Notes: generated from the letters alone by a model not told the origin. Positions 7,194 through 39,468 are shown, numbered from the stretch's first letter. The stretch: 64,000 nucleotides of DNA from Candidatus Moraniibacteriota bacterium (GCA_052035095.1 JBPOHW010000001.1:44857-108856); one strand, 5' to 3'. A program made the numbers and translations.

Positions 7194-9158
7194 TTATTGA
7201 GCCATTTTGTATACCGCGATATCGTCCGAAATATAGAGGAGGGACATTTCTTTAGCCTTGTTGAATTGGGCGCCGTCTACGTGGGGATTGACGACGACGG
7301 TATCAACGCCGGTGCTGTCAAAACAGGCTTTTCCTTTGGGGGTGTTGGGGGCGGAAATCATAAGGAGCGTGCACTGTTCGCGGAGGGTCACCTCGTCAGT
7401 GTAGCGGCGCAGATATCCGCGCGAGAGCGGATAGGAATAGTCGCGCATAAAGGAAAGCTTCATCCAGGAGTCGGCGACGATATAGTTGTGATCCTTGAGT
7501 ATCCATTCGTCCGGCGCGGTTCTCGCGGCGAGCCATCGGGAGGCGACAAATGTTTGAACGGCGTTTTTCGCGTTCGACTCTTTCGGGAGCGTACTCGCAT
7601 TGTCAAAAAATCCGCCGGTAACGGTTGCTATGAGAAGAAGCATAAACGACCACTGGAGAATACTCGTGCTCCCTCCGAGCGGTGTTGATTCAACTCCTTT
7701 TTGTTTTTGCAGGAAAAGCGCGGCAAGCGCGTATGCCGAGAGGATGGCCGCCGGAAAGGTCGCGTAGGTGCCGATGCGGTTTGAAGGGATATCGAGGAAG
7801 ACGAGGTGAGGGAAGAGCGCCATAACGATAAGTCCCACGCTCCAGCCTAAAAGCACGGAGGCTCCGAGCGTTTTCCGTAGGGGCGAGAGAAGGAGGAGCG
7901 CGATACCGACCAGTTCGAGTCCGAGGCGCGCGCCGCCGACACTCTGCGCGAGCTGGTCGAAGGTGATCCCTTCGCGGGTTGATTTGGAGGGGCTCCCGAG
8001 CGCGGTGTCGATCGCTTCGATATCGAGATAGGTCGGCGTATAGACAAAGAGGATGACGATAACGAGAAAAATAATCGCAAGAATCGGCGCCGGCGAAATG
8101 AACAGCGCGAGCCAGTCTCGTATTTTTGAGAAGGCGTCTTTTCGATTGAGCGCGACAAAAACGATGAGGACAGAGAGCGTGATGTATAAAAAGATCAGCA
8201 TTGAGAGATGATGCGTGAAGGCGAGCGTGCCCGTGAGGAGAAGCGCGAGCATGAGAAACGCGGCGCTTTTTTCTCGAAACGCGCGCAGGAGCGCGAGGAT
8301 GATCGCGGGAATGAGGAGGTTTCCAAGGAGATTTCCGACGACGCCGCCCGAGACATATTTGGCTTCAGGCGAGGAAAGCGCCCAGAGAGGGCCGACACAG
8401 AGAAGTATGAGAATCATCCCTCGACGCGCGAGCGTTGCAGTCGTGAACACCTCGCTAAAGAGGTGATAGGTGAGAATCGAAAGCGTGAGAATTGTCAGGA
8501 TATTTGCCGCGAGAAGGAAGAGCGAGGGAAAAGCGGAAGCGACATCGAGACCGGAGACGAGCGAGATGGCCGCGAAGGGGAGGTGTTCGCCGACGACGAA
8601 GTCATCAATCGGCTCGGGCGCCGTGAGCGTGTTCGATTCGTCTTTGAAGGCGATATTGATCTTCTCGTATTCCGGAACGGTTCCCTCGATCGCTATTTTC
8701 TTCGCCCAGAACATATGGTGTCCCAAGTCAGTTGAGGTGGGGAGAATGCCATCCCAGAGATACACTGACTTGATACATATCGTGAGTACGATCAGTCCGA
8801 TGAAGAGGATGCTTTCTTTTTTCGAAAACGAAAGACCGTGAATCCATTCGGGAAGTGAGAGTGAAAGCTTTGGGCGTTTCACGGAGTGGACCAAGATGGA
8901 AAGGGAAATCACGGAAACGATGCCGACGAGCCCGAGGAGGGAAATACGGGAAATCGGTATGCCGACCTTTGAGAGGAAGAGCATACCGAAATCGAGTATC
9001 GAGAGACCGAGGGCGAAAGAGAAAATCGCGAATTCAAAAATGGAAAACTTCCGCAATCCGCTTCGGAAAAGCACGAGAAACAACAAACTACCCGGAACAA
9101 AAAAAAGTCCGACGAGCGCAAGGAGAAAATTCAGGATGTTTAGAGATGTATCAATCAT
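7194..9158 (-). CDS. large polytopic membrane protein, putative GT-C fold glycosyltransferase (PMT/ArnT/YfhO-like)
   Basis: More than 12 predicted TM segments followed by a roughly 150-aa soluble C-terminal domain. Start taken at internal MIDTSLNILNFLL (overlaps the upstream GT4 stop by 8 nt); the ORF extends to 9290. Confidence 0.55.
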   Translation of the reverse strand: MIDTSLNILNFLLALVGLFFVPGSLLFLVLFRSGLRKFSIFEFAIFSFALGLSILDFGMLFLSKVGIPISRISLLGLVGIVSVISLSILVHSVKRPKLSLSLPEWIHGLSFSKKESILFIGLIVLTICIKSVYLWDGILPTSTDLGHHMFWAKKIAIEGTVPEYEKINIAFKDESNTLTAPEPIDDFVVGEHLPFAAISLVSGLDVASAFPSLFLLAANILTILTLSILTYHLFSEVFTTATLARRGMILILLCVGPLWALSSPEAKYVSGGVVGNLLGNLLIPAIILALLRAFREKSAAFLMLALLLTGTLAFTHHLSMLIFLYITLSVLIVFVALNRKDAFSKIRDWLALFISPAPILAIIFLVIVILFVYTPTYLDIEAIDTALGSPSKSTREGITFDQLAQSVGGARLGLELVGIALLLLSPLRKTLGASVLLGWSVGLIVMALFPHLVFLDIPSNRIGTYATFPAAILSAYALAALFLQKQKGVESTPLGGSTSILQWSFMLLLIATVTGGFFDNASTLPKESNAKNAVQTFVASRWLAARTAPDEWILKDHNYIVADSWMKLSFMRDYSYPLSRGYLRRYTDEVTLREQCTLLMISAPNTPKGKACFDSTGVDTVVVNPHVDGAQFNKAKEMSLLYISDDIAVYKMAQ

Positions 9159-10272
9159 GTTCTTTTTGTTTCTTGAGATCCCGTTCGCCGGTCGTGCGGG
9201 AGACAGTGTCTTGTATGATGCCGGCGTAGCAGGCGGAGATGGTCGCCCAATCGAAATGTCGCGCCGTGTAGACCCGCGCCCGTTCGCCAAAAGCTTTTCG
9301 TTCTTCGGGATTCGAGAGGAGGTGCTCTATTTTTTTGCGCCAGTCTTCGACATTTTCCGGCTCGGCAAAAATCCCGTTTTTCCCGTCGGCAAAGGCGTCT
9401 TTGAGACCCTCGAGGCGCGAGACGATGACGGGGATGCCGCAGGATGATGCCTCGATCGGAGTTATGCCGAATCCTTCGACATCGCCCGGAATATGGATAT
9501 TGGGCTGGACGAAAATATCGCAGGTGTTCATCAGAATATCGCGCGCGCGGTCGCTCACATAGCCCAAGAGTTTCACGCGCTCAAAGTTCCGGGTTTCTTC
9601 GATGGCGGAGCGGATATTGTCGCGATCGGGACCGTCTCCTGCAACCACATAGAGCACGGCGTTTGGAAGCGTCGGGAGGACGTTTCGGATAAACCACGCG
9701 ACCCCTTTGCGTCGCGCGAGCCGTCCCGATGTAAGGAGAACTGTAACATCTTTCTTGAGGTCTCCGAGGATGCCTTCGAGATCTTTTCGACTGAAATTGG
9801 GATTGTGGTGTGCCGAGGGGTCAATGCCGTTGGGGACGAATTCGAAATTTTCCTTGGGGATGCCGTGCGCGACGCCGAGCGAGATCGTTTCATTGCCGAC
9901 CGCGATGAGGCGGTCGAGTTTGGGGAGGAAAACGCGTACCCAGAGAAATTGGTAGAGAAAAAACGGATACGTGATGTCGAGTCCGTGAACAACCGAGAGA
10001 ACTGCCTTTTTGGGATAACAAATTTTTGCCGCCCAGCCGATCACCGAGAGGACGCCGTCGCCCAAGAGGATAGCGTCGAATCGTCGGGCGCAGAGGAGTG
10101 TCCGAATGAGCGCGTACGGCAAAAAAAATGGCAGGAATTTCTTCCCGAAACGATTAACGATCGTTGTGACTGCGCCGTGCTTTTTGAGCCACGCCGAAAG
10201 CGCGTAGTTTTGATTCTCGATCCCGCCCACGACCGGCGGATAGGCGCGAGAAATGAAGAGGATGCGGAGCAT
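9151..10272 (-). CDS. glycosyltransferase family 4
   Basis: GT1 domain pattern ...GFGITPIEASSCGIPVIVSRLEGLKD... 373 aa. Confidence 0.8.
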   Translation of the reverse strand: MLRILFISRAYPPVVGGIENQNYALSAWLKKHGAVTTIVNRFGKKFLPFFLPYALIRTLLCARRFDAILLGDGVLSVIGWAAKICYPKKAVLSVVHGLDITYPFFLYQFLWVRVFLPKLDRLIAVGNETISLGVAHGIPKENFEFVPNGIDPSAHHNPNFSRKDLEGILGDLKKDVTVLLTSGRLARRKGVAWFIRNVLPTLPNAVLYVVAGDGPDRDNIRSAIEETRNFERVKLLGYVSDRARDILMNTCDIFVQPNIHIPGDVEGFGITPIEASSCGIPVIVSRLEGLKDAFADGKNGIFAEPENVEDWRKKIEHLLSNPEERKAFGERARVYTARHFDWATISACYAGIIQDTVSRTTGERDLKKQKEHD

Positions 10273-13048: not shown

Positions 13049-13269
13049 AGGAACAGAGAATTATGAGTAATGATCTATGCCTCCTTATCTTGCATTGTAC
13101 GAAAAAAAGCCGCAAAAGTCGAGGACGAACAAAAGGGAAGTGTTTGGGATAAAAATATCACGTCCGGAATCCTCAAAAGCCGCCGTTGATTCCAGTCTTG
13201 ACAAAATAATGGATTATGCGCTACTATGCGTAGACTCAATTTTATTAACAGGCGTTTCGCCCTCCACTA

Positions 13270-14390
13270 TGAATCAGTCAAAAACAATGACCGCGACGCT
13301 CGTTGCGGGAAAGCGCGCGAAGAATGTCGTGTCTCTGCGAAAAAATCCCGGTTCTCTCGGGGGCTTTTATACGACGGCGTTTCGAAAGTTTCTTCACTCG
13401 GTTTCGCCGCGAGCGCTTGCTATCGCCTCGGCGCGGTATGGCGCGGGTGGTAAAAAACCGATGACGCTTGAGGAAATCGGTCAGACCTATGGCATTACGC
13501 GTGAGCGTGTTCGACAGATCATTTCAGTACTTCTTGAGAATGTTCGCGCAAAGCGGTATCCGGCGGCGCTCGAAGAAGTTTCAAAAAAAATAGAATGGAC
13601 GCTCAAAAAGAGGAGTGGTATACTCGAAAAGGAGGCGTTCTTTTCCGCGATCGCAAAAGATGATGCGAAAGAGCAGGGAGCGGTTCGTTTTTTCTTGGCG
13701 GTGCTGCCCGAGCGTTTTCGAAAGTTTGAAAGTGACGTTCTGGTTCCATCAATCGCGCTCGCGTCGTTTTCGTATGAGGCGTGGCGAACGGTCAATGAGA
13801 ACGCCAAGCACCTCTTTGTCGAAAACGGCGCCTCGCTTGCCGAAGCGGAGCTTCTCAAACGACTCGGAAAAATTCCGGCGCTCAAAGCCTATAGCCAAGA
13901 AACGCTCCTTGATTTTCTTGCCGTGTCTCGAGAGTGCCGAAGGAACCCTTTTGGGCAATGGGGACTTCCCGAATGGAGCGATATTTGCCCGCGGGGAACA
14001 CGAGAACGGGCGTATTTGATTGTCCGAAATGAGAAAAAACCGCTTCACTTCCGGGATATCGCGGTCAAAATCGACCGTTCGGGATTGCAGAAGCCGGGAA
14101 AGACGACCCACCCGCAAACGGTGCACAACGAGCTTATCAAAGACAAGCGCTTCGTGTTGGTGGGGCGAGGAACTTACGCGCTCGTTGAGTGGGGATATCG
14201 GCGCGGAACCGTTCGGGAGGTGATCGAAGAAATTCTTCGCGAACAAAAAAAGCCGATTGATCGCGAAACCTTGATTGCCGAGGTTCTCAAGATTCGAGAT
14301 GTGAAAGAAGCGACGGTTGTGATCAATTTGAACGCGTTTTTTACGCGAGGGAAAGACGGGGCATATACGCTCCCGGAAACAAAAAAATAA
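13270..14390 (+). CDS. DNA-binding protein with sigma-70 region-4-like HTH and C-terminal HARE-HTH-like repeats
   Basis: LEEIGQTYGITRERVRQI is a classic sigma region 4.2 HTH. FVLVGRGTYALVEWGY resembles the HARE-HTH signature of the RNAP delta subunit. Start uncertain; alternatives are 13215 and 13288. A possible TTGACA(13198)/TACTAT(13223) promoter lies upstream. Confidence 0.55.
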
Positions 14391-14444
14391 CAGTATCGTA
14401 TTTGGCGGGATAGCGGTCGGGGGATTTTCAACGAATGATCTCTC

Positions 14445-15743
14445 ATGGGCACCCTTTTTTTCAAAAGTTTGACTGACATGGCGGAGGCGCTCTCCAATAT
14501 CTGGGGCGTTATGGGAGAGGCGTGGTTTGTTGTCCTTCCGCCGACCCTGTATTTTATTTTCAAACTGCTCTGGATGGATCACATCCAGAACCAATATATC
14601 GGAAGCGTCAAAACCGTGCTCCTCGAAATTATCCCGCCGCGCGATATCGAGAAGAGTCCCAAGGTGATGGAGACGATTTTTGACGGTATCGCCGGTGTCG
14701 ACAAAACGCCGACAACGGTAGAAGCCTTTGTTCAGGGGTACCTCCCTCCACTTATCAGTCTCGAGTTGGCGGGTGACGGGGTGACGGGGGGACACATATA
14801 CGTGCGGACACCGGTCGCGTTTCGAAACCTTATCGAGGCGTATTTTTACGCGCAGTATTCGAATGTGGAAATTGTCGAGGTGCCGGATTACGTGGATGAC
14901 ATCCCAAAGGGCGCGCCCAACAAGGAATGGGATCTTTTTGGTGCTGATGTCGAGTTTACCAAGCCGGACCCTTATCCGATCAAGACCTACCACTACTATG
15001 AAGAGGACGTGACCGGTAAAATGATCGATCCTCTGGCGGGACTCCTCGAGACATTCGGGAAACTGCCGCCCGGGCAAAAATTGTGGTTTCAAATGATTAT
15101 CACGCCGCTCAAGCCGACTTTTTACAATACCGGAAAGGAGCTCCTCAATGAAATCATCGGTCGCGCCGTGAAGGCAAAGCCAACCTCGGTTCTTGGGGAC
15201 ATCACTTCCGGTGTCGGGGAAATCGTAACCAATATACCGAAGGCGTTTTTCGGACCGGTTGAATTCGCCACCGCCAAAGAAGAAGAAAAAAAGAAAGACT
15301 TCCTCGAATATCAATTGACGCCGATTGAAAAAGAAGTGGTAAAAGCGCTCGAGGCGAATATCGGACGCAATGTGTTTAGCTGTCGTTTGCGTGTGATCTA
15401 TCTCGGAAAGAAGAAAGGATTTGACAAGTCTTTTGTCTCGTCGTTTTTCGGCGCGCTCAAGCAGTTCAACGATTTCAACTTAAACGGCTTTAAACCGAAT
15501 GACGCGTCGAAAACGTATGCCAATTACTTGTTTACGACTTCTCGTCTCCGGTATCGCCAGCGGAAACTCTTGCGTCGCTACAAATTTCGCGATCCCGATT
15601 CTCCGGTGCCAATGCTCGCTTTGAGTACCGCCGAACTCGCGACGCTTTTCCATATTCCGGATATGAATGTCATTGCGCCGTCACTCACCCGCGTCACATC
15701 CAAACAAGCCTCCGCCCCCGCCAACTTGCCCATACGACCGTAA
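14445..15743 (+). CDS. membrane-anchored protein of unknown function, putative partner of the downstream ATPase
   Basis: One N-terminal TM (AWFVVLPPTLYFIFKLLW) and a roughly 380-aa soluble domain ending ...AELATLFHIPDMNV... Same strand as the ATPase gene, 104 nt upstream of it. Confidence 0.6.
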   Translation: MGTLFFKSLTDMAEALSNIWGVMGEAWFVVLPPTLYFIFKLLWMDHIQNQYIGSVKTVLLEIIPPRDIEKSPKVMETIFDGIAGVDKTPTTVEAFVQGYLPPLISLELAGDGVTGGHIYVRTPVAFRNLIEAYFYAQYSNVEIVEVPDYVDDIPKGAPNKEWDLFGADVEFTKPDPYPIKTYHYYEEDVTGKMIDPLAGLLETFGKLPPGQKLWFQMIITPLKPTFYNTGKELLNEIIGRAVKAKPTSVLGDITSGVGEIVTNIPKAFFGPVEFATAKEEEKKKDFLEYQLTPIEKEVVKALEANIGRNVFSCRLRVIYLGKKKGFDKSFVSSFFGALKQFNDFNLNGFKPNDASKTYANYLFTTSRLRYRQRKLLRRYKFRDPDSPVPMLALSTAELATLFHIPDMNVIAPSLTRVTSKQASAPANLPIRP

Positions 15744-15847
15744 AAATGCAAAAACAATGCAAAAAAGAAAATATGCGGATACGGAAATTTTTGATGTTTA
15801 GTGTTTCATTTTTCATTTTACTTTTTTCATTTTGAATTTCTCCCCCT

Positions 15848-17896
15848 ATGTCCGACGTGACCTATTTTGCAAAAACGAATTTTCGAAACGAGAACCGGGT
15901 GTTCGGCATCAAGGCGGATGATCGCCGCCGGCATATGTATATCATCGGGAAGACGGGTATGGGGAAGACGAACCTCCTCGAGAACCTCGTCATTCAGGAT
16001 ATTCAGCACGGTTACGGCATCGCCTATATCGATCCTCACGGTGACACCGCCGAGAAACTCATCCGCGCCATTCCGCCCTCGCGCGCGAACGATGTCATTT
16101 ATTTCAATCCCTCGGATCAGGATTTCCCCGTCGCCTTCAATGTGATGGAGCACGTCGGACCCGAGTATCGGCATTTGGTCGCGTCGGGTTTGGTCGGCGT
16201 GTTCAAAAAAATATGGGCTGACTCCTGGGGACCGCGACTCGAGTATATTCTGCGAAATGCAATCTTGGCGCTCCTTGAATATCCCGGATCGACGCTTTTG
16301 GGCGTGATGAGAATTTTGGTCGACAAGGAATACCGGAAGCGCGTGCTTGAAAAAGTGACCGATCCGGTGGTACGGTCGTTTTGGGTTGACGAATACACCA
16401 AATGGAACGATCGCGTACTCCAAGAAGTGATCGCGCCGATTCAAAACAAAGTCGGGCAGTTTCTTTCGAGTTCGCTTATTCGCAACATTGTCGGACAGAC
16501 GATTTCTTCGTTTGACGTGCGCGATGTTATGGATAGCGGGAAGATTCTCATTATGAATCTCTCCAAGGGTCGTATCGGCGAAGACAACAGCGCCCTCATC
16601 GGCGCGATGATGATTACCAAGATTCAGCTCGCCGCGATGGGGCGCGTGGATATGCCCGAAGAGGAGCGCAAAGACTTCTATCTCTACGTGGACGAGTTTC
16701 AAAATTTCGCGACGGAGTCGTTTGGAAATATTCTTTCCGAAGCGCGCAAGTATCGATTAAATCTTACGCTTGCCAATCAATATATCTTGCAAATCGAAGA
16801 ACCGGTGCGCGATGCTATCTTCGGCAATACGGGTACGATCATTAGTTTTCGCGTGGGCGCGACAGACGCGGAATTTCTCGAAAAAGAATTCGAACCGATT
16901 TTCTTGGCAACCGATATCGTGAATCTTGAAAAGTACCACATCTATTTGAAACTCATGATTGACGGTATTGCGGGAGACGCCTTCAGCGCGACGACGCTTC
17001 CGCCGATTGAGCTTCCGGAAAGTATGGAGAATGCCGACAAGATCATCCGACTTTCTCGCGAGCGATACGCCGCCAACAAGCAGGACGTCGAAGACAAAAT
17101 TCGTCGGTGGACCGGAATTCTGACCGAGGAAGAACGACAGAGTTTTGAGGAGCGGATGCGTGCGCGCGCCGAAGAGTCGGCTCGCGAAGGTGCCGCCTCA
17201 CCCCCCACTTCAGCCGTACCGATTCCAGCGTCGCCCCAACAATCGCCCCTGCCTTATTCCGTGGCGACGCAAAGATCGGTGCAGAAGCCGCTTGAGCAAC
17301 ATATATGGCATGAAAATAATCGCTCACCCCAGTCATTTCAAAGGCGGGATTCGCAACCATTGGCACCGACCATGGTAGAGAGAATACCGAACGCTCCCAC
17401 TCGTCCAAACGAATTCGTTGTTTCCGGGAAACCGCTTGCTCCGCTTCGCGAGGAAGCGTCGGCGGCGGTGCCAACGGAGGAGCGGGTTTTGTTTCGGTCC
17501 AGGTGCGCCGTTTGTAATATTGAAATCGAAGTTCCGTTTCGTCCGGATGGGAAACGCCCAACCTTCTGTAAAGAACACTTCAGGAGTTTTCAAAAAACGA
17601 TTGCGAAAACACGAACAGATCCCTTTCCCGCGCACACAGCACCTATTTCGTCTCCGCAATTTCGCGCTCCCCGTTTTGATCCGTTGTCGGAGAACCCGGT
17701 ACTGGAGAAGGGTATCGCAACATCCGCACCGCATACGTTTACCCCCAAGGCGTACGCGCCGAAAGACGCGCCGCTTTCTCTCGGGCAAATTCAGCATATC
17801 GCTCCGAAACCTTTCCGACACATTAAGGACGCTATCGATCTCGGCGAAGTGCGAAAGATACTCTCAACAGAGAGAACGGAAAAGAATCACGGGTAA
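15848..17896 (+). CDS. soluble VirD4/TraG/TraD-like (FtsK-HerA superfamily) P-loop ATPase with Pro-rich linker and C-terminal CxxC...CxxH zinc-ribbon-like tail
   Basis: Walker A IIGKTGMGKTN and Walker B YLYVDEFQNF. No TM segments. C-terminal CAVCNIEIEVPFRPDGKRPTFCKEHF. Confidence 0.8.
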   Translation: MSDVTYFAKTNFRNENRVFGIKADDRRRHMYIIGKTGMGKTNLLENLVIQDIQHGYGIAYIDPHGDTAEKLIRAIPPSRANDVIYFNPSDQDFPVAFNVMEHVGPEYRHLVASGLVGVFKKIWADSWGPRLEYILRNAILALLEYPGSTLLGVMRILVDKEYRKRVLEKVTDPVVRSFWVDEYTKWNDRVLQEVIAPIQNKVGQFLSSSLIRNIVGQTISSFDVRDVMDSGKILIMNLSKGRIGEDNSALIGAMMITKIQLAAMGRVDMPEEERKDFYLYVDEFQNFATESFGNILSEARKYRLNLTLANQYILQIEEPVRDAIFGNTGTIISFRVGATDAEFLEKEFEPIFLATDIVNLEKYHIYLKLMIDGIAGDAFSATTLPPIELPESMENADKIIRLSRERYAANKQDVEDKIRRWTGILTEEERQSFEERMRARAEESAREGAASPPTSAVPIPASPQQSPLPYSVATQRSVQKPLEQHIWHENNRSPQSFQRRDSQPLAPTMVERIPNAPTRPNEFVVSGKPLAPLREEASAAVPTEERVLFRSRCAVCNIEIEVPFRPDGKRPTFCKEHFRSFQKTIAKTRTDPFPAHTAPISSPQFRAPRFDPLSENPVLEKGIATSAPHTFTPKAYAPKDAPLSLGQIQHIAPKPFRHIKDAIDLGEVRKILSTERTEKNHG

Positions 17897-18060: not shown

Positions 18061-18486
18061 ATGAAAAAAGTATTCGTATTTTTTTTCTCGGGAGGAATTC
18101 TTTTCCTCGGTATTGTTGGGAGTCTTTTTGTCGGATACCGCGCGTACGAGGAGTCCAAACGAAACAAAAGTATACTGGTGGAGATTCAAGCCCTTGAAAG
18201 GGAAGCAAACCAAGTGGATCAAGAAAACAGAAAGCTCCGCGACCGTATCGAGTATCTCCAATCGGACAGTTTCCGAGAACAGGAAGCCAAACGTCTTCTC
18301 GAATACCAAAAGTCCGGAGAGAAGGTTGTTTTTATTCGGGGGCGAACGAAAACTGCCGCCAAGAAGAGCGAGTCGGGCGATTTTCGAGCATCTGTTCCGA
18401 CGGTTCTCGGCGCTACTTCTCCCGAAATGCCGAATCCGATACAATGGTGGTACGAATTTTTCGGTTCAAAAAACAATAATCGCTGA
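18061..18486 (+). CDS. ftsB: septum formation initiator family protein (FtsB/DivIC-like)
   Basis: N-terminal TM, coiled coil, and ...EQEAKRLLEYQKSGEKVV... typical of FtsB/DivIC. Confidence 0.6.
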   Translation: MKKVFVFFFSGGILFLGIVGSLFVGYRAYEESKRNKSILVEIQALEREANQVDQENRKLRDRIEYLQSDSFREQEAKRLLEYQKSGEKVVFIRGRTKTAAKKSESGDFRASVPTVLGATSPEMPNPIQWWYEFFGSKNNNR

Positions 18487-19599: not shown

Positions 19600-20886
19600 A
19601 TGGAAACCATAAACGTGTCTCAATCGGAAGAGATGAAAAAGGGAGAGGGGAGTCCGCAAAAATGCCGACGTGGCGGATCAATCGTCCTTCTGGTAAGTTT
19701 TCTGTTCGGCTTGTTTGGCGGCATTCTGGGATGGTGGGTCGGGCCGCGCCTTGCGAGCGATCTTAGCCTCCCACTCCCGCCCATCTTCCGAGATATTGCG
19801 AATCAAAAGGAAAAAAATACGTCGATGACGCTCCCTTCGGCGGTTTCTTCGGAAGAGGCGCTCCTTGTCGATTTGGTTGAAAAAAGCACGAAGGCTGTCG
19901 TGAGCGTCGTGATAACCAAAGATGTCCCCAAGTACCGAAGCCTTTTCGATAATCCGGGATTTCCGTTTTTCTTCGGAAACCCGTTTTATGAACGCGAGTA
20001 CGATACCGGAGAAACCGAACGACAAACGGTTGGCGAGGGATCCGGATTTTTCGTTTCTTCCAACGGAACTATCGTTACCAATAGGCATGTCGTAGATGAA
20101 ATGCAGGCAGATTATACGGTCATTATGAGTGACAAAAAAGAATACTCGGCGCGCGTCTTGGCGCGCGATCCGGTACAAGATATCGCGATTCTGAAAATCG
20201 AGGGCGATAATTTTCCGGCGCTCGACCTCGGCGATTCCGATGCCGTTAAAGTAGGTCAGACCGCGGTTGCGATCGGGAATTCGCTCGGCGAGTTTTCCAA
20301 TACCGTGAGCCGAGGCATCGTATCGGGTCTCAAGCGAAACCTTGTCGCGGGATCCGGTTTCGGCGCGTCGGAGCGACTTTCGGGCATTATCCAAACGGAT
20401 GCCGCCATCAATCCCGGTAATTCCGGCGGACCCCTTCTTGACCTTTCGGGAAAGGTGATTGGAGTGAATGTAGCAATGGCACAGGGCGCGCAAAATATCG
20501 GATTTGCGATACCGGTTAACAGTATCAAAAACGCTCTCAAGGAAGTGAAAGAAACCGGGAGGATTTCCTCTCCCTTTCTCGGGGTTCGCTATGCGCTTAT
20601 TACGCCGGAGATTCAAAAAGAAAACAACCTTCCGTTCGAGTATGGCGCGTTGGTGGTTCGGGGTCAAAAAATGACCGACCTCGCGGTCGTACCGGGATCT
20701 CCCGCGGATAAAGCCGGTATTGTCGAAAATGATATCATCCTCGAAATCGACGGGATTAGGATGGATGAAGAAAACCAGCTGGGCGATATCATCGGGACAA
20801 AACGCTCCGGCGATACCATAACGCTCAAACTCTGGCGTAAGGGTGATACCAAAGAAGTCAAGGTGACGCTCGAGGAGCGGAAGTAA
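19600..20886 (+). CDS. htrA: HtrA/DegP-family serine protease with PDZ domain (catalytically intact)
   Basis: Catalytic triad context TNRHVV / DIAILKI / GNSGGPLLD, followed by a PDZ domain. Confidence 0.85.
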   Translation: METINVSQSEEMKKGEGSPQKCRRGGSIVLLVSFLFGLFGGILGWWVGPRLASDLSLPLPPIFRDIANQKEKNTSMTLPSAVSSEEALLVDLVEKSTKAVVSVVITKDVPKYRSLFDNPGFPFFFGNPFYEREYDTGETERQTVGEGSGFFVSSNGTIVTNRHVVDEMQADYTVIMSDKKEYSARVLARDPVQDIAILKIEGDNFPALDLGDSDAVKVGQTAVAIGNSLGEFSNTVSRGIVSGLKRNLVAGSGFGASERLSGIIQTDAAINPGNSGGPLLDLSGKVIGVNVAMAQGAQNIGFAIPVNSIKNALKEVKETGRISSPFLGVRYALITPEIQKENNLPFEYGALVVRGQKMTDLAVVPGSPADKAGIVENDIILEIDGIRMDEENQLGDIIGTKRSGDTITLKLWRKGDTKEVKVTLEERK

Positions 20887-20906: not shown

Positions 20907-21749
20907 TTGTTCGGTCAAAAAGTAAAAAGTCGGCGCCGCTTGAAGCGAGGAGAGGAAGGGAGTACGATACGAAAAGAACAGCTCCCGTCTCTGATCGTAT
21001 CGATTATGTTTTTCCACATCGCCGTTTTTTTTGCTACGCTTCTTTTTTTTGGTTTTTTGGAGGCATTCATCGCTCTTCCCGCGCGATTTTCGCCGATAGC
21101 CGCTTTCTTTTTGACGGTACTCTTTCGAATGTCATGGCGCTTTGGCGGGTCAATCGGATCGGCGCTTATACCGACTCTGTTTTCACTTTCCGCTTACATC
21201 CTCCTTTTTTTTGTCAGTGCGCCGAAAGAAAAGCACACTTTCATTTTTTTGAGCTCGATGGTATTTTATGTGGCGATGCTTGGAAACTATCGCCTTAAGC
21301 AGTACAAGGGAGATGTGACGGCGCAGAGTATGTTGTCCTTGGTTGCCATCACCGCGCTTTTCTTTCTTTTTAGCGCTTTCTACGGAGTATTTCTCAACTT
21401 CCAGCGTTTTGATGAGGCGACACTGATGATTTCATACGGGATATCGGCTTTTTTGATCGGATTCTCTGCGTTTGCTCGATTGTTTCGGAATGAGACGCGG
21501 AAGGCGTGGTTGTCGTCTCTCCTCCTTGGAATTTTTGCGGCTCAAATAGGCTGGATTGGAAGCTTTTGGCCGTTTGGATACTTGACGTCGGGGGTGCTCG
21601 CGCTTATGATGATCTCTCCTCTCTGGGATACGATTCAGAGTGAAGCATTGGGAACGTTCTCAAAAAAACGCCTTGTCGTGCACACGCTTCTTATCCTCAG
21701 CTTGGTTGGCATGGTTCTCGTGAGTTCCCCCTGGCTTCCGGTGGTATAA
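20907..21749 (+). CDS. polytopic membrane protein (hypothetical)
   Basis: About 8 TM segments. TTG start at 20907; alternative ATG at 21003. Confidence 0.5.
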   Translation: MFGQKVKSRRRLKRGEEGSTIRKEQLPSLIVSIMFFHIAVFFATLLFFGFLEAFIALPARFSPIAAFFLTVLFRMSWRFGGSIGSALIPTLFSLSAYILLFFVSAPKEKHTFIFLSSMVFYVAMLGNYRLKQYKGDVTAQSMLSLVAITALFFLFSAFYGVFLNFQRFDEATLMISYGISAFLIGFSAFARLFRNETRKAWLSSLLLGIFAAQIGWIGSFWPFGYLTSGVLALMMISPLWDTIQSEALGTFSKKRLVVHTLLILSLVGMVLVSSPWLPVV

Positions 21750-21939: not shown

Positions 21940-23112
21940 ATGAGAGCTGGTATAAAAAAATTTTTCTGGTACGGACTTTTCGTGGGAGGAGTCGCGATTA
22001 TCGGTGGCATAGCGGGTATCGTGGCGGATCGGACAATACTTCCGAAAATCGCGGCAGATAGTTTTCTCTCCCGATGGGATATTTTCAAGAAAGTTTCGGA
22101 GAATACCGTGATCATCAATAAGACAGAGCAAGTGGTGATTCGTGAAGATGACTCAGTTGAGACTATCGCGCTTTCCGCTTCTCCATCGGTGGTCAATATT
22201 CTTTCCGTCAGAAATGTTGGAACCGAAATCGGAAAAGCAGGGGAGGAAACTTCCAAAAATGTCGGAATGCTTCAGGGGAGTGGCGTCCTCGTCACCAATG
22301 ACGGACGTATCGCAACCTTCAAAACTGCCATTCTGGAAAACGCGAGTTACACCGTCTTTCTCTATAATGGGACCAGCTATCCGGCAAAACTTGAGGCGAC
22401 GGATTCGCTCACTGGCCTTGTGTATCTCTCGGTTTCTGCCGGTAATCTTCCCTCTATTTCCTTTGCCGATTCCGATGAAATTCGCGCCGGGAAAAAATTG
22501 ATCCTTATCGCCAATACGTCGGAGGAATATCGAAACCGTTATTCAACTGCTCTCCTCGGCAATACCGACAAAACCTACAATATCGCGGGTGGCGCTGTTG
22601 CCTCATCCGAGCGGTGGGAGGGAGTGTATGCTGTGGATGCGGCAAATATCGCGCCCTATCTCGGCGGTCCCGCCATCAACTACTCGGGCGATCTTATCGG
22701 TATTGTCGGGAACGCTCCCAAGGACGGCGGCTTCGAATCGTTTCTGCTTCCTTCGAACGCCGTCAAAGAATCGCTCGAGCGATATGTGCGGGGAACACTT
22801 GATCGTCGCCCGTTTCTCGGTGTTTCATACCTCTCGATCACCAAGGCCTACGCGGTCGCTCACTCAATCGAACGCGATCGCGGCGCGCTTATCACGACGC
22901 CCTCCGGTAAGCAGGGGCTCGCGGTACTCTTCGGATCGCCCGCCGAACGAGCGGGAATTCGCATCGGCGATATCATCCTCGCGGTGAACGGAGAAGAAAT
23001 CAATCTCGATACGCCGCTCTCAGTCGCAATCGGAAGGTTAGAGAAGGGGAAAGACGCTACGCTGCGTATCCTCCGCGCAAGAGAGGAACAGGATATTGTA
23101 GTAGGACTCTAA
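21940..23112 (+). CDS. HtrA-like trypsin-fold plus PDZ protein with all three catalytic residues replaced (pseudo-protease)
   Basis: Same architecture as htrA, but His context reads VTNDGRIAT, the Asp context is lost, and GNSGGP is replaced by YLGGPAIN. Confidence 0.7.
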   Translation: MRAGIKKFFWYGLFVGGVAIIGGIAGIVADRTILPKIAADSFLSRWDIFKKVSENTVIINKTEQVVIREDDSVETIALSASPSVVNILSVRNVGTEIGKAGEETSKNVGMLQGSGVLVTNDGRIATFKTAILENASYTVFLYNGTSYPAKLEATDSLTGLVYLSVSAGNLPSISFADSDEIRAGKKLILIANTSEEYRNRYSTALLGNTDKTYNIAGGAVASSERWEGVYAVDAANIAPYLGGPAINYSGDLIGIVGNAPKDGGFESFLLPSNAVKESLERYVRGTLDRRPFLGVSYLSITKAYAVAHSIERDRGALITTPSGKQGLAVLFGSPAERAGIRIGDIILAVNGEEINLDTPLSVAIGRLEKGKDATLRILRAREEQDIVVGL

Positions 23113-34279: not shown

Positions 34280-35617
34280 TCAGGATTCGGGAATATACCT
34301 CGAAAGTATTCGTTCCTTCAGTTTGGAAAGCATTCGAAATAACGAATCTTTACTCACGGATGTTTCAAAAGAAACGTCAAGCCTTCGAATATCGGTATCG
34401 GCGGGAACGTCAATTGAAAATTCATAGGTATCACCGTGAAACTCGCGGAGCGCCGCGAGCGGGATGGAGCATTCGAGGTAATACGAAGAAAGCGGAGAAA
34501 AACCCTCTTCCAACACGCATGAAGCTCTCGTTTGAAGCGACTCCGAGGAAACAAGGATCGGATGTCGATTGCCGAGCCATGCGTGAAGAATAGTTTCTCC
34601 TCGAATCTCTCGTTTTTTTCCTTCCTCGATGAGGAAGTACCGATTTTCTCTTGTGTCAAGCAACACGGTTCCATCCGGATGCGGCACGGATACATCGACG
34701 AATTTTCCTTTCGGCACGAGGCTGATTTCTTCGTCGTTTGCCGGACGAACATCGTCCCAGGAGTATCCGAGCGAAAGAAAAATGTCAACGCCGAGTATGG
34801 GTCGCGGAGACTCACCGTCCATCAGGAAAACGCCGTCGCCCCACGAAAGGAGCGAGCCGCTCGGGTAGCCGCGCCATTCATCTGAAACCGTTCGCGCGCG
34901 GATAAATGAAACGTCTCTCGGGAGCGCCCAGTTTTCCGGAAATCGAGCAAGAAACGATTCGCGACTCACAAAAGGGATGAGTTTGCCGTTTCGCCACTCG
35001 TAAAAAATACCGTCCGAATGAATAAATGACCCACTCGGCGGTTCATCGCCGGAAAATTCGACTGATCCGCCGTCTCGATGGAGAAGTAGCTCCTCGGATG
35101 AAGCGACAAGAAACACATTCGGATCGAACCCAAGAGACCTGACCGCATCTTCGGACGGGAAACGTTTTCTTGTTCCATTTGGGGCGATTTGAAAATAGTC
35201 TCCTCCGAATCGAAGGAGTGATCCCTTTGGAAAAGGAGCAAGGCTTCCTTCGGGATAGAGAAATGCCTTTTGTGAGCGCCGAATCGAGACACTTCCGCTT
35301 TCGAGCGCGCGCACCGAATCATCTCCCGAAACACCTATGATCGCGTTTGAGAAGTCCCCGAATATCGAGGCGTCAACAATAAGCATTTCGCTTTCGGCAA
35401 GTCGCCCGTTCCCGCGCGGGTCACCCGTATCGGTTCTCGGACTTTGGAGCGTGTTTCGTTCCGCTTTTGAGTTTTCAAAGTCGAAGACAAAATCGAATGA
35501 GGGAAAGAAGAGAGAAAAGGCAAACGTGAACATTCCAAAAAAGAAAATGGACCAAAGGATGACACGTCCCGTAATAAAAACAATATTCCAAAGTTTTGGT
35601 AGGGAGGAAGAGCTCAT
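34280..35617 (-). CDS. membrane-anchored extracytoplasmic protein (hypothetical)
   Basis: N-terminal TM then a 400-aa domain with no recognisable motifs. Its stop abuts the next gene's start. Confidence 0.5.
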   Translation of the reverse strand: MSSSSLPKLWNIVFITGRVILWSIFFFGMFTFAFSLFFPSFDFVFDFENSKAERNTLQSPRTDTGDPRGNGRLAESEMLIVDASIFGDFSNAIIGVSGDDSVRALESGSVSIRRSQKAFLYPEGSLAPFPKGSLLRFGGDYFQIAPNGTRKRFPSEDAVRSLGFDPNVFLVASSEELLLHRDGGSVEFSGDEPPSGSFIHSDGIFYEWRNGKLIPFVSRESFLARFPENWALPRDVSFIRARTVSDEWRGYPSGSLLSWGDGVFLMDGESPRPILGVDIFLSLGYSWDDVRPANDEEISLVPKGKFVDVSVPHPDGTVLLDTRENRYFLIEEGKKREIRGETILHAWLGNRHPILVSSESLQTRASCVLEEGFSPLSSYYLECSIPLAALREFHGDTYEFSIDVPADTDIRRLDVSFETSVSKDSLFRMLSKLKERILSRYIPES

Positions 35618-35641: not shown

Positions 35642-37531
35642 TTAAGAATGAGGAATGGAGGAGGAGAGAGGGAGGATGCGAAAGATAGCTCCGTGAACAG
35701 TTTCGGCTTTTTGGGTGGGGAGGCGAGAGGGATCGGTTTCGCGAGAAAGGATAGAAGTGCGGAGCGTATAAGAAGATGCTGCTTCGAGAAGATATCGATC
35801 CTTGAACGTATCACGATAGCGTGCCTCATCGCCGTTTCGCGCGATGAGGTAGATATTCTCAAAGCGAGATTGATCGATTCGGTCGAGGTCGTCGGGATTG
35901 AAAAAGTATACCGCGTTTTTGCCGAAAAGCGTACTCATGGAGTCGGCGATCATAGAATAGGGATCGCCAGACGCCATCCGGTCAACGAGGACGAGATCGC
36001 GATCGGAAAATATCTCGGAAAGTTTCTCGACATCTTCAAGGAGATTTGGATTTTCGGAAAAGGAAAGCGTGGGAAGAGTGGCCGGGAAAGAGGGAAGAAT
36101 GAGGAGTGATGAAAAAACCAGTGAAAATATCGTTGGGCGAAACAGTATTTTTCCGGGGTATTTCTCGGAAAAAACTTTCTGGAGATGCGCCACTGCAAAT
36201 ATCGCGAGAATGATGACGGTCGGCCAGAGGGAGAAAATGAAACGACGCAAAAGCCATGGGTGATCGCTGGAAATATGAGTATTTACCAGATAGATGAATG
36301 TCGGGAACGCAAGAAAAAACGGGGTAAGAGAAAGAGAATGTCGCTTTCGAAAAAGGGTAACTCCTCCTAGCAGAGCGAGCGCGAAAACCGAGATCATCCC
36401 GTAAGTCCACAATATTTCAATGTTTCTGAAAAGTGTGGAAAAAATGGATACGCTCGCTGATATGTTCCCGGAAGGAGAGAGGGAATTGACGAGTGCCTTC
36501 CCAACCGTTCGATAGAAAGGGAGACTGACCCAAAGGCTGACGGCAAAGAATATTCCGGAAAGAGTAACGGCGGGAAGCGTCGCGGAGAGAAACTTGGTTT
36601 TGAGAAACGCTCGAGAATCCGTTCGAAAAATCGCCAAGAGAAAAAAGACAGCGAGAACAAAAAATCCCTCAATGCGCGTCAGAAACAAGAAAATTCCGCT
36701 GAATACGGTCAAGAACCATGAAAGGCGCAACGGGCGCTGAAGAAAGGATATCGCGTGATATGAAACCAAGAGAAAAAGAAACACCGCGAGGTTTTCACTC
36801 AAAACATTGCGTGAGAGCCAAAGAATCGGAAAGGAGAGCGCGGCGATTGAAACGCCGCTTCCGGCAAAGGGAAGGGGAAGGAAGCGGCGAAGCAAGAGAA
36901 AAAGCGCGAGCAGAGTGAGAAAAAAAGTCACGGCATTGGCGATGGAGATACCGGCGATCTCAAAGAGAGAAATATGCGCTCCAAGCCATGTGATATATCC
37001 CAAGGGAAATTGCGTCACCAGTTGCCCGGTTTTTGTGTAGAAAAATCCGGGAATGTTAAGCGATCGCCCCTCACCGTATATATCGAAGAATTCTTCCGAC
37101 GCGGAGGGAATGCTTGAAACAATCGAATGATCCTGTGCGAGACGCAGTGCCGCTCCCGCGTAGGATCCCTGATCGCGTCCCGAAAAAATCGAGGGCGACG
37201 ATGAAAATAAAAGAATTGCGGCAAACGCAAAAAGAACCGCGCCAACGCGAATAAGCTCTCGTGATGGGCGAAGCTTCCAGAGGAGTGCTATCGTACCAAG
37301 CACGCTTCCGGCAAAAAGGATCCCAATGAATAGCGGCGTAAAGAAACCGGTGATCGCCACAATATACGACCCAAAAAGAAAAGAAATAAACGCAATCGAA
37401 AAGCGATCAAAAATCGTCCGATCACGATCCTCTAACTCGGAATTCTCGGATTTTTCCATATCGATCGAGCCCATACTCGCATTATATCCCGAGACCCCGT
37501 CAGAGGGAAGAAGGGGAGTGGGGCTAGACAA
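35642..37531 (-). CDS. GT-C fold membrane glycosyltransferase (ArnT/PMT, GT39/GT83-like)
   Basis: About 12 TM segments. First periplasmic loop ...SGRDQGSYAGAALRLAQ... resembles the DE/DQ loop of ArnT/PMT. The C-terminal tail is encoded by the gaatgaagaattaag repeat. Confidence 0.6.
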   Translation of the reverse strand: MSSPTPLLPSDGVSGYNASMGSIDMEKSENSELEDRDRTIFDRFSIAFISFLFGSYIVAITGFFTPLFIGILFAGSVLGTIALLWKLRPSRELIRVGAVLFAFAAILLFSSSPSIFSGRDQGSYAGAALRLAQDHSIVSSIPSASEEFFDIYGEGRSLNIPGFFYTKTGQLVTQFPLGYITWLGAHISLFEIAGISIANAVTFFLTLLALFLLLRRFLPLPFAGSGVSIAALSFPILWLSRNVLSENLAVFLFLLVSYHAISFLQRPLRLSWFLTVFSGIFLFLTRIEGFFVLAVFFLLAIFRTDSRAFLKTKFLSATLPAVTLSGIFFAVSLWVSLPFYRTVGKALVNSLSPSGNISASVSIFSTLFRNIEILWTYGMISVFALALLGGVTLFRKRHSLSLTPFFLAFPTFIYLVNTHISSDHPWLLRRFIFSLWPTVIILAIFAVAHLQKVFSEKYPGKILFRPTIFSLVFSSLLILPSFPATLPTLSFSENPNLLEDVEKLSEIFSDRDLVLVDRMASGDPYSMIADSMSTLFGKNAVYFFNPDDLDRIDQSRFENIYLIARNGDEARYRDTFKDRYLLEAASSYTLRTSILSRETDPSRLPTQKAETVHGAIFRILPLSSSIPHS

Positions 37532-37614
37532 ATATGGTTTCTTGTGATAAGTTTTTAGGGCTGTAACTTACCAATTCATTCGTTTTCATTTACTGAAAAC
37601 CCGAGGTACTCGAT

Positions 37615-37881
37615 ATGAAAAAGATCGATAATGCCACGAAGTCAGTGTTGGTAGAGTTGTGGGAAGAGGTGGAAATCCCCTTCTTTTCCATACTCTTGTC
37701 CTCCGTTTCTGCGTGCAGTGGCTATTTTATAGGCGGAAAGATTTTTGGATTCGGATGGACGGGAATGTTCGCTATCGGCATTGCCTCCCTTGCCATTTTT
37801 CTTTTTCTCCTCATTGTCATAATGACAAGGATGACAAACTTTGAAAAATCACATCCTTTGAGGCAGGAGAACTTCCAATGA
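37615..37881 (+). CDS. small membrane protein (hypothetical)
   Basis: 88 aa, two TM segments. Its stop overlaps the next start (atga). Confidence 0.4.
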   Translation: MKKIDNATKSVLVELWEEVEIPFFSILLSSVSACSGYFIGGKIFGFGWTGMFAIGIASLAIFLFLLIVIMTRMTNFEKSHPLRQENFQ

Positions 37882-38426
37882 CAACGCTTGCTCGTGAAGA
37901 CCTTGATAAAGAAAAAACCAGCAGTAGTGGCGATGATGTCGAGAGCTTCCGTACACAAGGGTACGAGGATATTGATCCCTACTGCTACTATAGAGTGCGG
38001 GATAGAACCATGCTTGTTGGAAATGCACTCTTTGAAGATCTGTTTGAGGATCTGAGAGATATGGAGTTTCTCTCAATAGAGGACTACTTCTTGTCTTTGG
38101 ATGAAAATTCTCCGGAAGATAAGAAAAAAAATTCGGAGATCCTACTGGTCCAATGTGCTTTCCACATAGTCCGCGGCGGAAATGTTGCCTGTAAGGTTAC
38201 CCAAGTTCAAGGAGGATACACATTCCACGTCCCAAGCAGGGAAGTTGCACGAGAAATTTCTCGAGTGCTCCCTAGACTCATTGAGGAGGTTAAAAATGGG
38301 TATAGTAGAGAGAGGGATAGCGTGTGGAAGCCGAAGAAATGGGAGATGCTTAAAGAGTTGCTTTTCTATGCGATTTGCTTCATCTCCCTTGTCCTTTTGG
38401 GATATATAACTAACCTAAATATTTAG
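37878..38426 (+). CDS. hypothetical protein with C-terminal TM anchor
   Basis: 182 aa: acidic N-terminus, C-terminal LLFYAICFISLVLLGYI TM. Translationally coupled to the upstream gene. Confidence 0.45.
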   Translation: MTTLAREDLDKEKTSSSGDDVESFRTQGYEDIDPYCYYRVRDRTMLVGNALFEDLFEDLRDMEFLSIEDYFLSLDENSPEDKKKNSEILLVQCAFHIVRGGNVACKVTQVQGGYTFHVPSREVAREISRVLPRLIEEVKNGYSRERDSVWKPKKWEMLKELLFYAICFISLVLLGYITNLNI

Positions 38427-38443
38427 TAGCTAATGATTTGATG

Positions 38444-38495
38444 GACGCCACTCCCCTTTCCGAAACGACGGAAAAGAGGGGGGTGGCGTTTTTTC
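38444..38495 (+). terminator. strong rho-independent terminator
   Basis: gacgccactcccctttccgaaacgacggaaaagaggggggtggcgtttttt. Confidence 0.75.
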
Positions 38496-38499
38496 TAAT

Positions 38500-38750
38500 C
38501 GGTTTCCGTGATAAAGTAGAATCCGTGATAAAGTAGAAATAGAGAGAGCGGAAGAATTTCTTGAAAAATTACGAGAAAGCGGGTGGTTCCAGTCTCGTCT
38601 CGACGAGAAAGGTAAACGTGTCTATTCATTGAGAAGCACCTTGTTTAAAGTGAAAAAAGATCTCCTGGAGAAGAAGTTTTTGGAACATGTTTCCGAATTT
38701 CTCTCCACACAGTATTATTCTTTGCTTCTTTCTATTTATGTCGCATAACT
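38500..38750 (+). pseudogene. possible gene remnant (winged-helix-like C-terminal fragment) preceded by an 18-bp tandem duplication
   Basis: tccgtgataaagtagaa occurs twice in tandem. An open frame with no start reads EEFLEKLRESGWFQSRLDEKGKRVYSLRSTLFKVKKDLLEKKF... Confidence 0.25.
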
Positions 38751-38826
38751 TACATTATGCGACAGTGTAGATATTCGAAAACACTCAAGCGCAAGCATTC
38801 CATTTTCCATTATTCCCCCTTCCCTC

Positions 38827-39177: not shown

Positions 39178-39234
39178 AGTTTTTTCTGAAAAATTATGTT
39201 TTATGCCAATTTGTCTTGATTCTGCTACCTTGAA

Positions 39235-39327
39235 AGTTGCCTCGACCAAGAAAAGACTTTTTCTCACATGCTCCTCTCTATCGGAGCAAACTTTCGAAAA
39301 ATTCTTTTCTTGGTCTCGGCGTGCATG
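39235..39327 (-). promoter_or_regulatory. conserved roughly 95-bp upstream element, copy 1 (18-bp inverted repeat around a core with GAGGAG-cATGTGA)
   Basis: agttgcctcgaccaagaaaagactttttctcacatgctcctctctatcggagcaaactttcgaaaaattcttttcttggtctcggcgtgcatg. Near-identical copy at 40101-40195. Confidence 0.5.
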
Positions 39328-39468
39328 TAGAGAAGATTTTGTCCTAATTTTTCTTCAAACAAAAAAGCGCCCGCGCACTTTTTTGTTTTTGTTTGATCAC
39401 CTACGGAACAAGTATACCGTCTTTTCCCGTTTCCAACAAGAAAACAAACAGGGATTGAAAATTGAGCG

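Follow-up and report, generated by a model that had tools for sequence, protein, structure and literature searches.

What function is served by a coupling-protein-like ATPase, encoded on a bacterial chromosome together with a membrane protein and a putative DNA-binding protein, is the question raised by a three-gene locus of Candidatus Moranbacteria, a lineage of the Patescibacteria or candidate phyla radiation (CPR). The locus lies in a chromosomal stretch of 64,000 nt, hereafter the window, and comprises three collinear genes on the + strand (13269-17896). They encode a 373-residue protein with sigma region 4 (r4) and HARE-type helix-turn-helix (HARE-HTH) domains (13269-14390), a 432-residue membrane protein of the DUF8128 family (PF26449; 14445-15743) and a 682-residue soluble ATPase that resembles TrwB and TraD (15848-17896). 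A preliminary description of this DNA recognized the module and proposed that the membrane protein and the ATPase together make up a split coupling protein. Both proposals hold: all three open reading frames (ORFs) are present, their order recurs across relatives, and only the start of the module has to be moved by one base, from 13270 to the ATG at 13269. We regard it as highly probable that the DUF8128 protein and the ATPase are the N- and C-terminal halves, respectively, of a split type IV coupling protein (T4CP). Among the named relatives of the two proteins, the closest come from metagenome-assembled genomes of Moranbacteria/Moraniibacteriota, and identical proteins are already public, for the ATPase as an NCBI record.

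The ATPase comprises three parts on the + strand: a nucleotide-binding domain (residues 1-425, 15848-17122), a variable linker rich in Pro, Ala and Ser (residues 431-545, 17138-17482), and a treble-clef zinc ribbon (zf_Tbcl_2 / CxxC-x17-CxxC, 17483-17584). The Walker A motif GKTGMGKT (residues 34-41, 15947-15970) and the Walker B motif YLYVDE (residues 278-283, 16679-16696) are each invariant in 20 homologues. Across these 20 sequences from Moranbacteria, Komeilibacteria and other Parcubacteria, the nucleotide-binding domain is 52-75% identical and has more than 200 invariant columns. Searches against Pfam matched TrwB_AAD_bind (PF10412) over residues 24-318 with 33.1 bits (cut-off 20.5), TraG-D_C (PF12696) with 22.8 bits (cut-off 22) and DUF87 with 30 bits, whereas the TraD models of NCBIfam gave partial matches far under their cut-offs; together with HARE-HTH, found in the first protein, all four families named for checking in the preliminary description were thus matched. 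The sole solved structures matched by the ATPase profile at the sequence level are TrwB (E = 1.7e-6) and DotL (E = 2e-5). By contrast, the VirB4-type models scored far too low (TIGR00929, 15 bits versus a cut-off of 643; AAA_10, 12.7 versus 27.5), and no VirB4 chain in the PDB was matched by the profile. As only TrwB and DotL match while the VirB4 models and structures do not, we assign the family to a T4CP lineage with a large N-terminal domain, within the VirD4/TrwB branch of the FtsK-HerA superfamily, in agreement with its earlier placement in the FtsK/HerA/VirD4 clade.

Compared to canonical T4CPs such as TrwB of R388, VirD4 and TraD, the window ATPase shares the P-loop domain with TrwB_AAD_bind and TraG-D_C matches, at a remote level of sequence similarity (30 bits). 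The canonical proteins, however, have a short two-helix transmembrane (TM) domain on the ATPase chain, lack a large N-terminal cytoplasmic domain, and are encoded with relaxase and mating-pair genes, which the window pair is not. In our family the ATPase chain is devoid of N-terminal TM helices, as previously noted, with no hydrophobic segment in any of the 71 members (0/71); the membrane anchor resides instead on the separate DUF8128 protein. FtsK/SpoIIIE belongs to the same ASCE superfamily and likewise combines a membrane-tethered motor with a DNA reader of winged-helix type, a part that the window would encode as a protein of its own, but neither FtsK_SpoIIIE nor the alpha or gamma domains gave a Pfam or NCBIfam match in the window ATPase. 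The linker, with 15% Pro, and the ribbon, which reads CAVC-x17-CKEH (residues 553-577, 17504-17578), are present as first described and are lineage-specific additions to the motor. Of the 71 members, 64 have Cys as the fourth zinc ligand, five have His (the window protein and its nearest kin) and two have none. The closest relative of the ATPase domain outside the CPR, with 42.7% identity, is a stand-alone protein of 395 residues encoded on a plasmid of the alphaproteobacterium Sulfitobacter mediterraneus (NZ_CP081110.1, 99994-101181); it has no N-terminal partner, is flanked by transposases, and may be a transferred or truncated copy.

The split is revealed by homologues that are made in one piece. 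Searching plasmids with the ATPase domain by tblastn returned 740 records, among them Bacillus, Streptomyces/Embleya, Pseudomonas, haloarchaea and Sulfolobus, and in the same Bacillus ORFs residues 131-253 of the DUF8128 protein gave a match that immediately precedes that of the ATPase. We then used a concatenate of the two window proteins (junction at residues 432/433), and found single BLASTP matches that cross the junction into one-piece, plasmid-encoded proteins from three phyla. Residues 131-849 of the concatenate match the 869-residue protein USK36540 of Bacillus sp. F19, annotated as "DUF87 domain-containing" (E = 2e-50); residues 363-817 match the 812-residue WP_331738717 of Embleya sp. 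NBC_00896 (E = 4e-77); and residues 286-851 match the 1193-residue WP_227380633 of Haladaptatus (E = 7e-42). These proteins share 26-32% identity with the window pair and are collinear with it over both halves. Profile alignment by hhalign agrees, superimposing positions 99-426 of the DUF8128 profile onto residues 52-311 of the Bacillus F19 protein (probability 97.6, E = 4e-12) and the ATPase profile onto its residues 345-706 (probability 99.9). The two matched blocks are separated by 33 residues in Bacillus F19, compared to 31 residues contributed by the C-terminus of DUF8128 and the N-terminus of the ATPase, which indicates that the break is a clean cut within the inter-domain linker. At the profile level, the N-terminal half resembles the Bacillus protein significantly but the Embleya protein only weakly (probability 48), and for Haladaptatus the similarity falls short of significance. 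The same T4CP gene is also cut in a plasmid of B. subtilis (CP025942.1, 2705-5340), there inside the DUF8128-like domain, giving ORFs of 171 and 696 residues that are 30 bp apart; the cut gene occurs in small "non-mobilizable" plasmids of B. subtilis food strains, and is either a pseudogene or the result of another, independent splitting event.

The one-piece proteins differ from the window pair in more than being single polypeptides. The Embleya protein has the same layout, with an N-terminal TM segment (residues 34-56), an N-terminal domain of ~350 residues and then the ATPase, but it ends about 30 residues after the ATPase domain and lacks a zinc-ribbon tail, whereas the Bacillus form has no TM segment at all. 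The Embleya gene is part of a type IV secretion system (T4SS) cluster in the order PrgI/VirB3, XF1762, ATP-binding protein, T4CP-type protein, replication-relaxation protein and NlpC/P60, and the Bacillus F19 gene is followed by Replic_Relax and TcpC genes. In both bacterial cases the next gene thus encodes a DNA-processing Replic_Relax protein; we found no similarity between this partner and the r4/HARE-HTH protein of the CPR, and discarded the idea that they are related. The separate ATP-binding protein of the Embleya cluster is probably VirB4-like, as suggested by a weak profile match (probability 31), and because this cluster holds both, the DUF8128-bearing type of T4CP and VirB4 appear to be distinct paralogues. 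Overall, the family does group with T4CPs located in T4SS gene sets, in other phyla but not in this lineage, which is in part the outcome that the preliminary description named as refuting its reading.

The DUF8128 protein starts with a long helix (residues 2-54 in the structure model) that contains a hydrophobic membrane-anchor segment at about residues 24-46 (14514-14582, + strand), followed by an α+β domain (residues 56-402, 14610-15650, + strand) and a conserved C-terminal tail (residues 395-432, 15627-15740, + strand). The hydrophobic stretch, around residues 20-47, is the only one on the chain, with a Kyte-Doolittle maximum of 1.54 that rises to at least 1.6 in most relatives. The protein was previously suggested to be the membrane part of the split pair, with a single TM helix; the single helix stands, but the model indicates that DUF8128 is more than an anchor, with a cytoplasmic domain of ~370 residues beside the membrane helix. 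The assignment to PF26449 comes from a precomputed Pfam match on a protein identical to that of the window and on all listed homologues. Clustering of the family at 50% leaves 1505 representatives, and the 150 best of these are all too short to include a fused ATPase.

Two structure models were computed, the first from 22 sequences with a predicted local distance difference test score (pLDDT) of 65, and the second from an alignment of 87 sequences, with a pLDDT of 86.4 and a predicted template modelling score (pTM) of 0.81. Structural similarity search of the second model against the PDB using Foldseek gave 13 top matches that are all TrwK/VirB4 chains of the R388 T4SS, with E-values from 3.5e-6 to 2.4e-4, whereas the next match has an E-value of 0.012; the best matches of the first, shallower model are also TrwK/VirB4. 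The TM-scores of these matches are 0.30-0.36 at an identity of 7-8%, so the resemblance to VirB4 is a fold-level lead. As no other P-loop protein is among the matches and the model is an α+β structure with hairpins, the match probably falls on the N-terminal domain of VirB4. On the strength of the model, we consider that the DUF8128 domain probably has a VirB4-like fold, TrwK being its only significant structural match. The overall layout, an N-terminal domain of ~400 residues before a Walker A motif, resembles that of VirB4, and there is a precedent for separation, in that the N-terminal part of VirB4 is encoded by a gene of its own, TrsD, in pGO1 and in Patescibacteria T4SSs. Nevertheless, hhalign found nothing to identify DUF8128 as TrsD or as the N-terminus of TrsE of pGO1 and no match to the Embleya VirB4-like ATPase, and the DUF8128 profile had no match among PDB sequences.

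The C-terminal tail of DUF8128 (ELATLFHIPD...AP...AP.NLP) contains invariant columns and matches the inter-domain linker of the one-piece homologues, aligning to residues ~285-311 of the Bacillus protein. This linker or tail (family consensus ELATxFHxPD...AP...NLP) is the most conserved and yet the least confidently modelled part of the protein, with a pLDDT of 46-64 in the monomer model, as expected of a peptide that is obliged to find its partner in trans.

To see how far the module is kept, species-representative genomes were scanned with the DUF8128 alignment, and the ORFs of the resulting 80 Moranbacteria-like loci were searched with the window proteins; six distant loci from Komeilibacteria and other Parcubacteria, with relatives 30-35% identical, were added. 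The order HTH protein, DUF8128 and ATPase on one strand is found in 69 of the 80 Moranbacteria loci, each of the 11 exceptions having a contig end at the place of the missing gene, and in five of the six distant loci. The arrangement is far beyond chance. DUF8128 and ATPase genes are adjacent in all 70 Moranbacteria loci with room for both and in 6/6 distant loci, and the HTH gene lies directly upstream of DUF8128 in 79/80 and 5/6 loci, respectively; the distant locus L085 has no HTH gene, and in the other five its product is ~370 residues long. The median gaps in Moranbacteria are 88 bp between HTH and DUF8128 genes, and 9 bp between DUF8128 and ATPase genes. In the window the latter gap is unusually long (104 bp) and accommodates a 21-bp tandem repeat of 2.2 copies (ATTTTTCATTTTACGTGTTTC-like, 15787-15833, no strand assigned), which could be an internal promoter or a regulatory insert particular to this lineage.

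The flanks of the module are less constant. In the window, the gene 3' of the ATPase (18061-18486) is DivIC/FtsB-like, and in about 44 Moranbacteria loci the module is followed by FtsB, a PpiC-type foldase and HtrA. The adjacency to ftsB, to which the preliminary description drew attention, is real, yet local to Moranbacteria, for the distant loci have SecD-SecF upstream and nucleoside phosphorylase, MnmA or other genes downstream. SecDF was also discarded as a fourth member of the module, since it stands upstream in five of the six distant loci but is not adjacent in Moranbacteria. The SecD proteins of distant Parcubacteria loci (L081-L083, L086 and L087) contain one or two inserted PpiC-type rotamase domains. 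Further 3' of the module in the window, two paralogous HtrA-type serine proteases with PDZ domains (19600-20886 and 21940-23112) flank a 280-residue polytopic membrane protein with no Pfam match (20907-21749), an arrangement kept in many Moranbacteria. Altogether, the DUF8128-ATPase pair is fixed in chromosomal, non-mobile contexts and is under strong purifying selection.

This fixation bears on whether the locus belongs to an anti-phage defence system or is left over from a mobile element. Such an origin is brought to mind by the plasmid-borne relatives, by a match of the ATPase domain to PADLOC mad8 of the MADS system (55 bits, E = 2e-15), and by a match of the r4 region of the HTH protein to MzaA (PADLOC / NCBIfam). 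We hold it to be very improbable, given the chromosomal synteny, the very high sequence conservation, a GC content equal to that of the flanks, and the near-universal presence of T4CP homologues in the phylum (PMC12102498). The mad operon has eight genes and includes an N6-methyltransferase. The window ORFs scanned include no methyltransferase or other mad or mza gene, and a MADS or Mza system as such was rejected, its domain matches being generic and its partner genes absent nearby.

The first gene of the module encodes, as described, a protein that combines sigma region 4 with HARE-HTH. Its mechanical ORF begins at 13077, but nothing in 45 homologues corresponds to its first 64 codons, and a promoter-like site (TTGACA-18-TACTAT, 10/12, 13198-13227, + strand) lies inside this non-conserved extension, upstream of the gene proper; the protein should therefore start at the ATG at 13269 (373 residues) or at the alternative ATG at 13287. 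The site is a consensus match only, and promoter-like sites are no more numerous in the region than in shuffles. In the 373-residue form, sigma-70 region 4 (residues 42-93; Pfam E = 2e-10) is followed by a middle winged-helix-like segment, the HARE-HTH domain (residues 246-308; E = 7e-12) and a C-terminal winged-helix-like segment. The C-terminal segment weakly resembles an internal segment (hhalign E = 6e-5), and the saccharibacterial homologue from S. epibionticum has been parsed by others into one tri-helical and three winged domains, so the earlier wording of "HARE-HTH-like repeats" is reasonable. An ordinary sigma factor is ruled out, since region 4 is matched while regions 2 and 3 have no match in Pfam or NCBIfam; every sigma model matches residues ~100-160 alone, with scores far under the cut-off. 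The HARE-HTH domain scores 42.2 bits against the RNA polymerase delta subunit model TIGR04567 (cut-off 42). The protein is nonetheless not the delta subunit (RpoE), as this domain is internal to a multi-HTH protein whose end is winged-helix-like and lacks an acidic tail.

In the transposon sequencing (Tn-seq) data of Wang et al. (2023; PMC10633639) on S. epibionticum, the 349-residue r4 and HARE-HTH protein SEML1_0294 is essential at all time points, whereas the adjoining SEML1_0293, a 921-residue protein with a TrwB domain from residue 402, is non-essential. SEML1_0293 is likely an ortholog of the window pair and has the same r4/HARE-HTH neighbour, but differs in being apparently fused into one piece. 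It is a real, if lesser, possibility that DUF8128 and ATPase alone are the functional unit, with the HTH protein either an unrelated essential transcription or RNA polymerase accessory factor, kept only as an old syntenic neighbour, or the regulator of the operon. In addition to the opposite Tn-seq behaviour, the wider gap in front of DUF8128, the distant locus L085 and the dissimilarity to the Replic_Relax partner are consistent with it, as is the fact that both domains are RNA polymerase-associated modules, with HARE-HTH at the delta cut-off. However, Moranbacteria, Komeilibacteria, other Parcubacteria and apparently Saccharibacteria share this adjacency and orientation while all other flanks change, which would be unusual for unrelated genes. 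Moreover, T4CPs are classically paired with small DNA-binding partners, as in TraM-TraD and TrwA-TrwB. In the reading that we favour, the HTH protein must in addition hold a second, essential role.

The most likely function to be inferred for the module is DNA handling at the membrane. As the overall best explanation, we favour with moderate confidence a domesticated, split, zinc-ribbon-tailed T4CP that recruits or pumps nucleic acid at the membrane. In this model, the C-terminal tail of DUF8128 would dock on the conserved N-terminus of the ATPase, and the N-terminal helix of DUF8128 would tether a predicted T4CP-type hexamer to the membrane. ATP hydrolysis would then drive the recruitment or pumping of nucleic acid, with substrate or partner binding supplied by the zinc ribbon and by the r4/HARE-HTH protein encoded next to the pair. 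The putative VirB4-like domain may couple the motor to the inner-membrane platform of a chromosomal T4SS or pilus, which in most Patescibacteria is encoded elsewhere. A DNA-coupling role of the split T4CP in the strict sense is put forward only tentatively.

Published data on the Patescibacteria set the frame for this model. Quinonero-Coronel et al. (2025; PMC12102498) recorded 5,713 VirD4-type T4CP homologues in 2,918 of 3,035 genomes (about 96%), of which 148 are near virB4, and found virB4 itself in 2,417 of the 3,035 genomes (about 80%); they left the orphan T4CPs without an assigned role and stated that T4CP co-option cannot be excluded. The window ATPase resembles these homologues, which are VirD4-type, distant from virB4 and near-universal. 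In S. epibionticum, the T4SS genes are essential, as are a second T4CP-like protein, SEML1_0142, and the canonical FtsK, SEML1_0096, which is complete with its gamma domain (PMC10633639).

Several observations weigh against the proposed model. No T4SS or conjugation family is present among the 40 other window ORFs scanned, as stated in the preliminary description, and genes for a T4SS, a relaxase or a pilin are absent from the window and from the 10-kb surroundings of the module in 86 related loci. Relaxases are rare in the phylum, with 109 in the 3,035 genomes, and the excess of T4CP homologues over virB4 (96% versus 80% of genomes) means that at least some T4CPs act without a T4SS (PMC12102498). 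Since the T4SS is essential and SEML1_0293 is dispensable, the latter is not needed for the essential T4SS function, and since SEML1_0294 is essential while SEML1_0293 is not, the HTH protein and the ATPase are not strictly one functional unit. The VirB4 likeness of DUF8128 exists at the fold level only, and sequence profiles show no similarity of DUF8128 to VirB4, TrsD or TrsE. With the T4SS essential and the likely ortholog dispensable in laboratory co-culture, the split T4CP probably has a conditional role, e.g., in DNA exchange with the host or with kin, rather than one required for growth.

Some of these observations would also fit a split T4CP that acts alone without a T4SS. It would pump DNA while tethered to the membrane, either in uptake, together with ComEC and type IV pili, or in the handling of the chromosome when the cell divides. 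Genomes with T4CP homologues outnumber those with virB4, and the two kinds of gene are hardly ever neighbours (PMC12102498), the module is beside ftsB in Moranbacteria, and dispensability in co-culture resembles that of com genes; according to the literature, Patescibacteria are naturally competent and reliant on scavenged nucleotides. We nevertheless judge this alternative unlikely. An N-terminal domain with a VirB4-like fold points to docking on a platform of the T4SS kind, the adjacency to ftsB is lost outside Moranbacteria, S. epibionticum already has a complete and essential FtsK, and its transformation is accounted for by ComEC in the literature. To our knowledge, no T4CP powers uptake via ComEC. 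Chromosome segregation, or substitution for FtsK, was accordingly rejected as the leading reading, because FtsK is essential and the T4CP homologue dispensable in S. epibionticum and because the ftsB adjacency is restricted to Moranbacteria. The earlier preference for a segregation or competence device over a secretion system could not be established: in addition to the behaviour of FtsK and the T4CP homologue, the one-piece relatives stand beside replication-relaxation and T4SS or conjugation genes, and ~80% of Patescibacteria genomes carry a virB4 T4SS at another place (PMC12102498).

The motor could also be a receptor and unfoldase for protein effectors that leave the cell by the Patescibacteria T4SS, rather than a DNA motor. 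The T4SS of this phylum is thought to be non-conjugative, without a relaxase (PMC12102498), and T4CPs like DotL, one of the only two PDB sequence matches of the ATPase, recruit proteins; secretion and folding genes (SecDF, PpiC-type foldase and HtrA) are nearby in several lineages. These flanking genes, however, are not kept across lineages, the HTH partner and the zinc ribbon point to nucleic acid, and the protein is dispensable where the T4SS is essential, so an effector receptor appears improbable.

Beyond the module and its flanks, the remaining window ORFs scanned are housekeeping genes, encoding DnaE, SecA, FtsEX, a release factor, NusB, RNase III, a tRNA synthetase, glycosyltransferases and similar proteins. 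A small integrated element (47263-51851) adjoins tRNA-Gln (51780-51851). Its genes encode a homologue of Tad4, by which phages counter Thoeris (48100-48792; PF25186, E = 4e-33), a replication protein of the rolling-circle type (REP_ORF2-G2P, 49536-50270) and a large serine recombinase (50263-51792), the 3' end of which overlaps the tRNA-Gln gene. The Tad4 homologue is thus an anti-defence gene on a mobile element within a CPR genome. The GC skew of the + strand is positive from position 1 to ~38 kb and negative thereafter, with the maximum of the cumulative skew near 38 kb; at 37.5-39.5 kb the GC content drops to 0.44 and long ORFs are few. This switch at ~36000-40000 may mark a replication terminus or an origin-type switch. 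Five large ORFs of 445-698 residues have no Pfam match at E <= 0.001: 7194-9290 (-), 34280-35617 (-), 35642-37531 (-), 56708-58342 (+) and 61234-63018 (-). The one of 698 residues is a polytopic membrane protein adjoining glycosyltransferases, and ORF 56708-58342 overlaps secA on the opposite strand; the five may include both surface proteins specific to the CPR and shadow ORFs.

The module is not a new kind of system, since both the orphan T4CPs of Patescibacteria and the DUF8128 family were already known. No paper on DUF8128, or on HARE-HTH in combination with CPR, was returned by full-text searches, and neither PMC12102498 nor PMC10633639 describes DUF8128 as a partner, the splitting of the T4CP, the VirB4-like fold, the zinc ribbon or the constant HTH neighbour. 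New with respect to the searchable literature are therefore the recognition of DUF8128 as the detached N-terminal half of a coupling protein, its putative VirB4-like fold, the zinc-ribbon tail, and the phylum-wide association with an r4/HARE-HTH gene whose homologue in one cultivated species is essential. Proteins of the DUF8128 family that are now annotated as "hypothetical membrane protein" can become N-terminal subunits of coupling proteins, and the orphan T4CP of the Patescibacteria, which make up a large share of bacterial diversity, gains an anatomy. In the genetically tractable S. epibionticum it can be tested whether, as predicted, the two domains bind each other, the ATPase activity depends on DNA, and the protein has a bearing on DNA transfer or transformation. 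The proposed VirB4-like fold also bears on the divergence of VirB4 and VirD4. One speculative extension, which we think improbable at present, is that DUF8128-bearing T4CPs are an evolutionary intermediate between VirB4 and VirD4 that retains the N-terminal domain of VirB4, and that this ancient conjugation motor was domesticated phylum-wide in Patescibacteria as a chromosomally encoded, relaxase-independent mover of chromosomal or host DNA across the membrane, working with an essential sigma-r4/HARE-HTH protein, possibly in a transcription-coupled manner. If this were true, it would amount to a route of DNA exchange between epibiont and host without counterpart in the bacteria studied so far.

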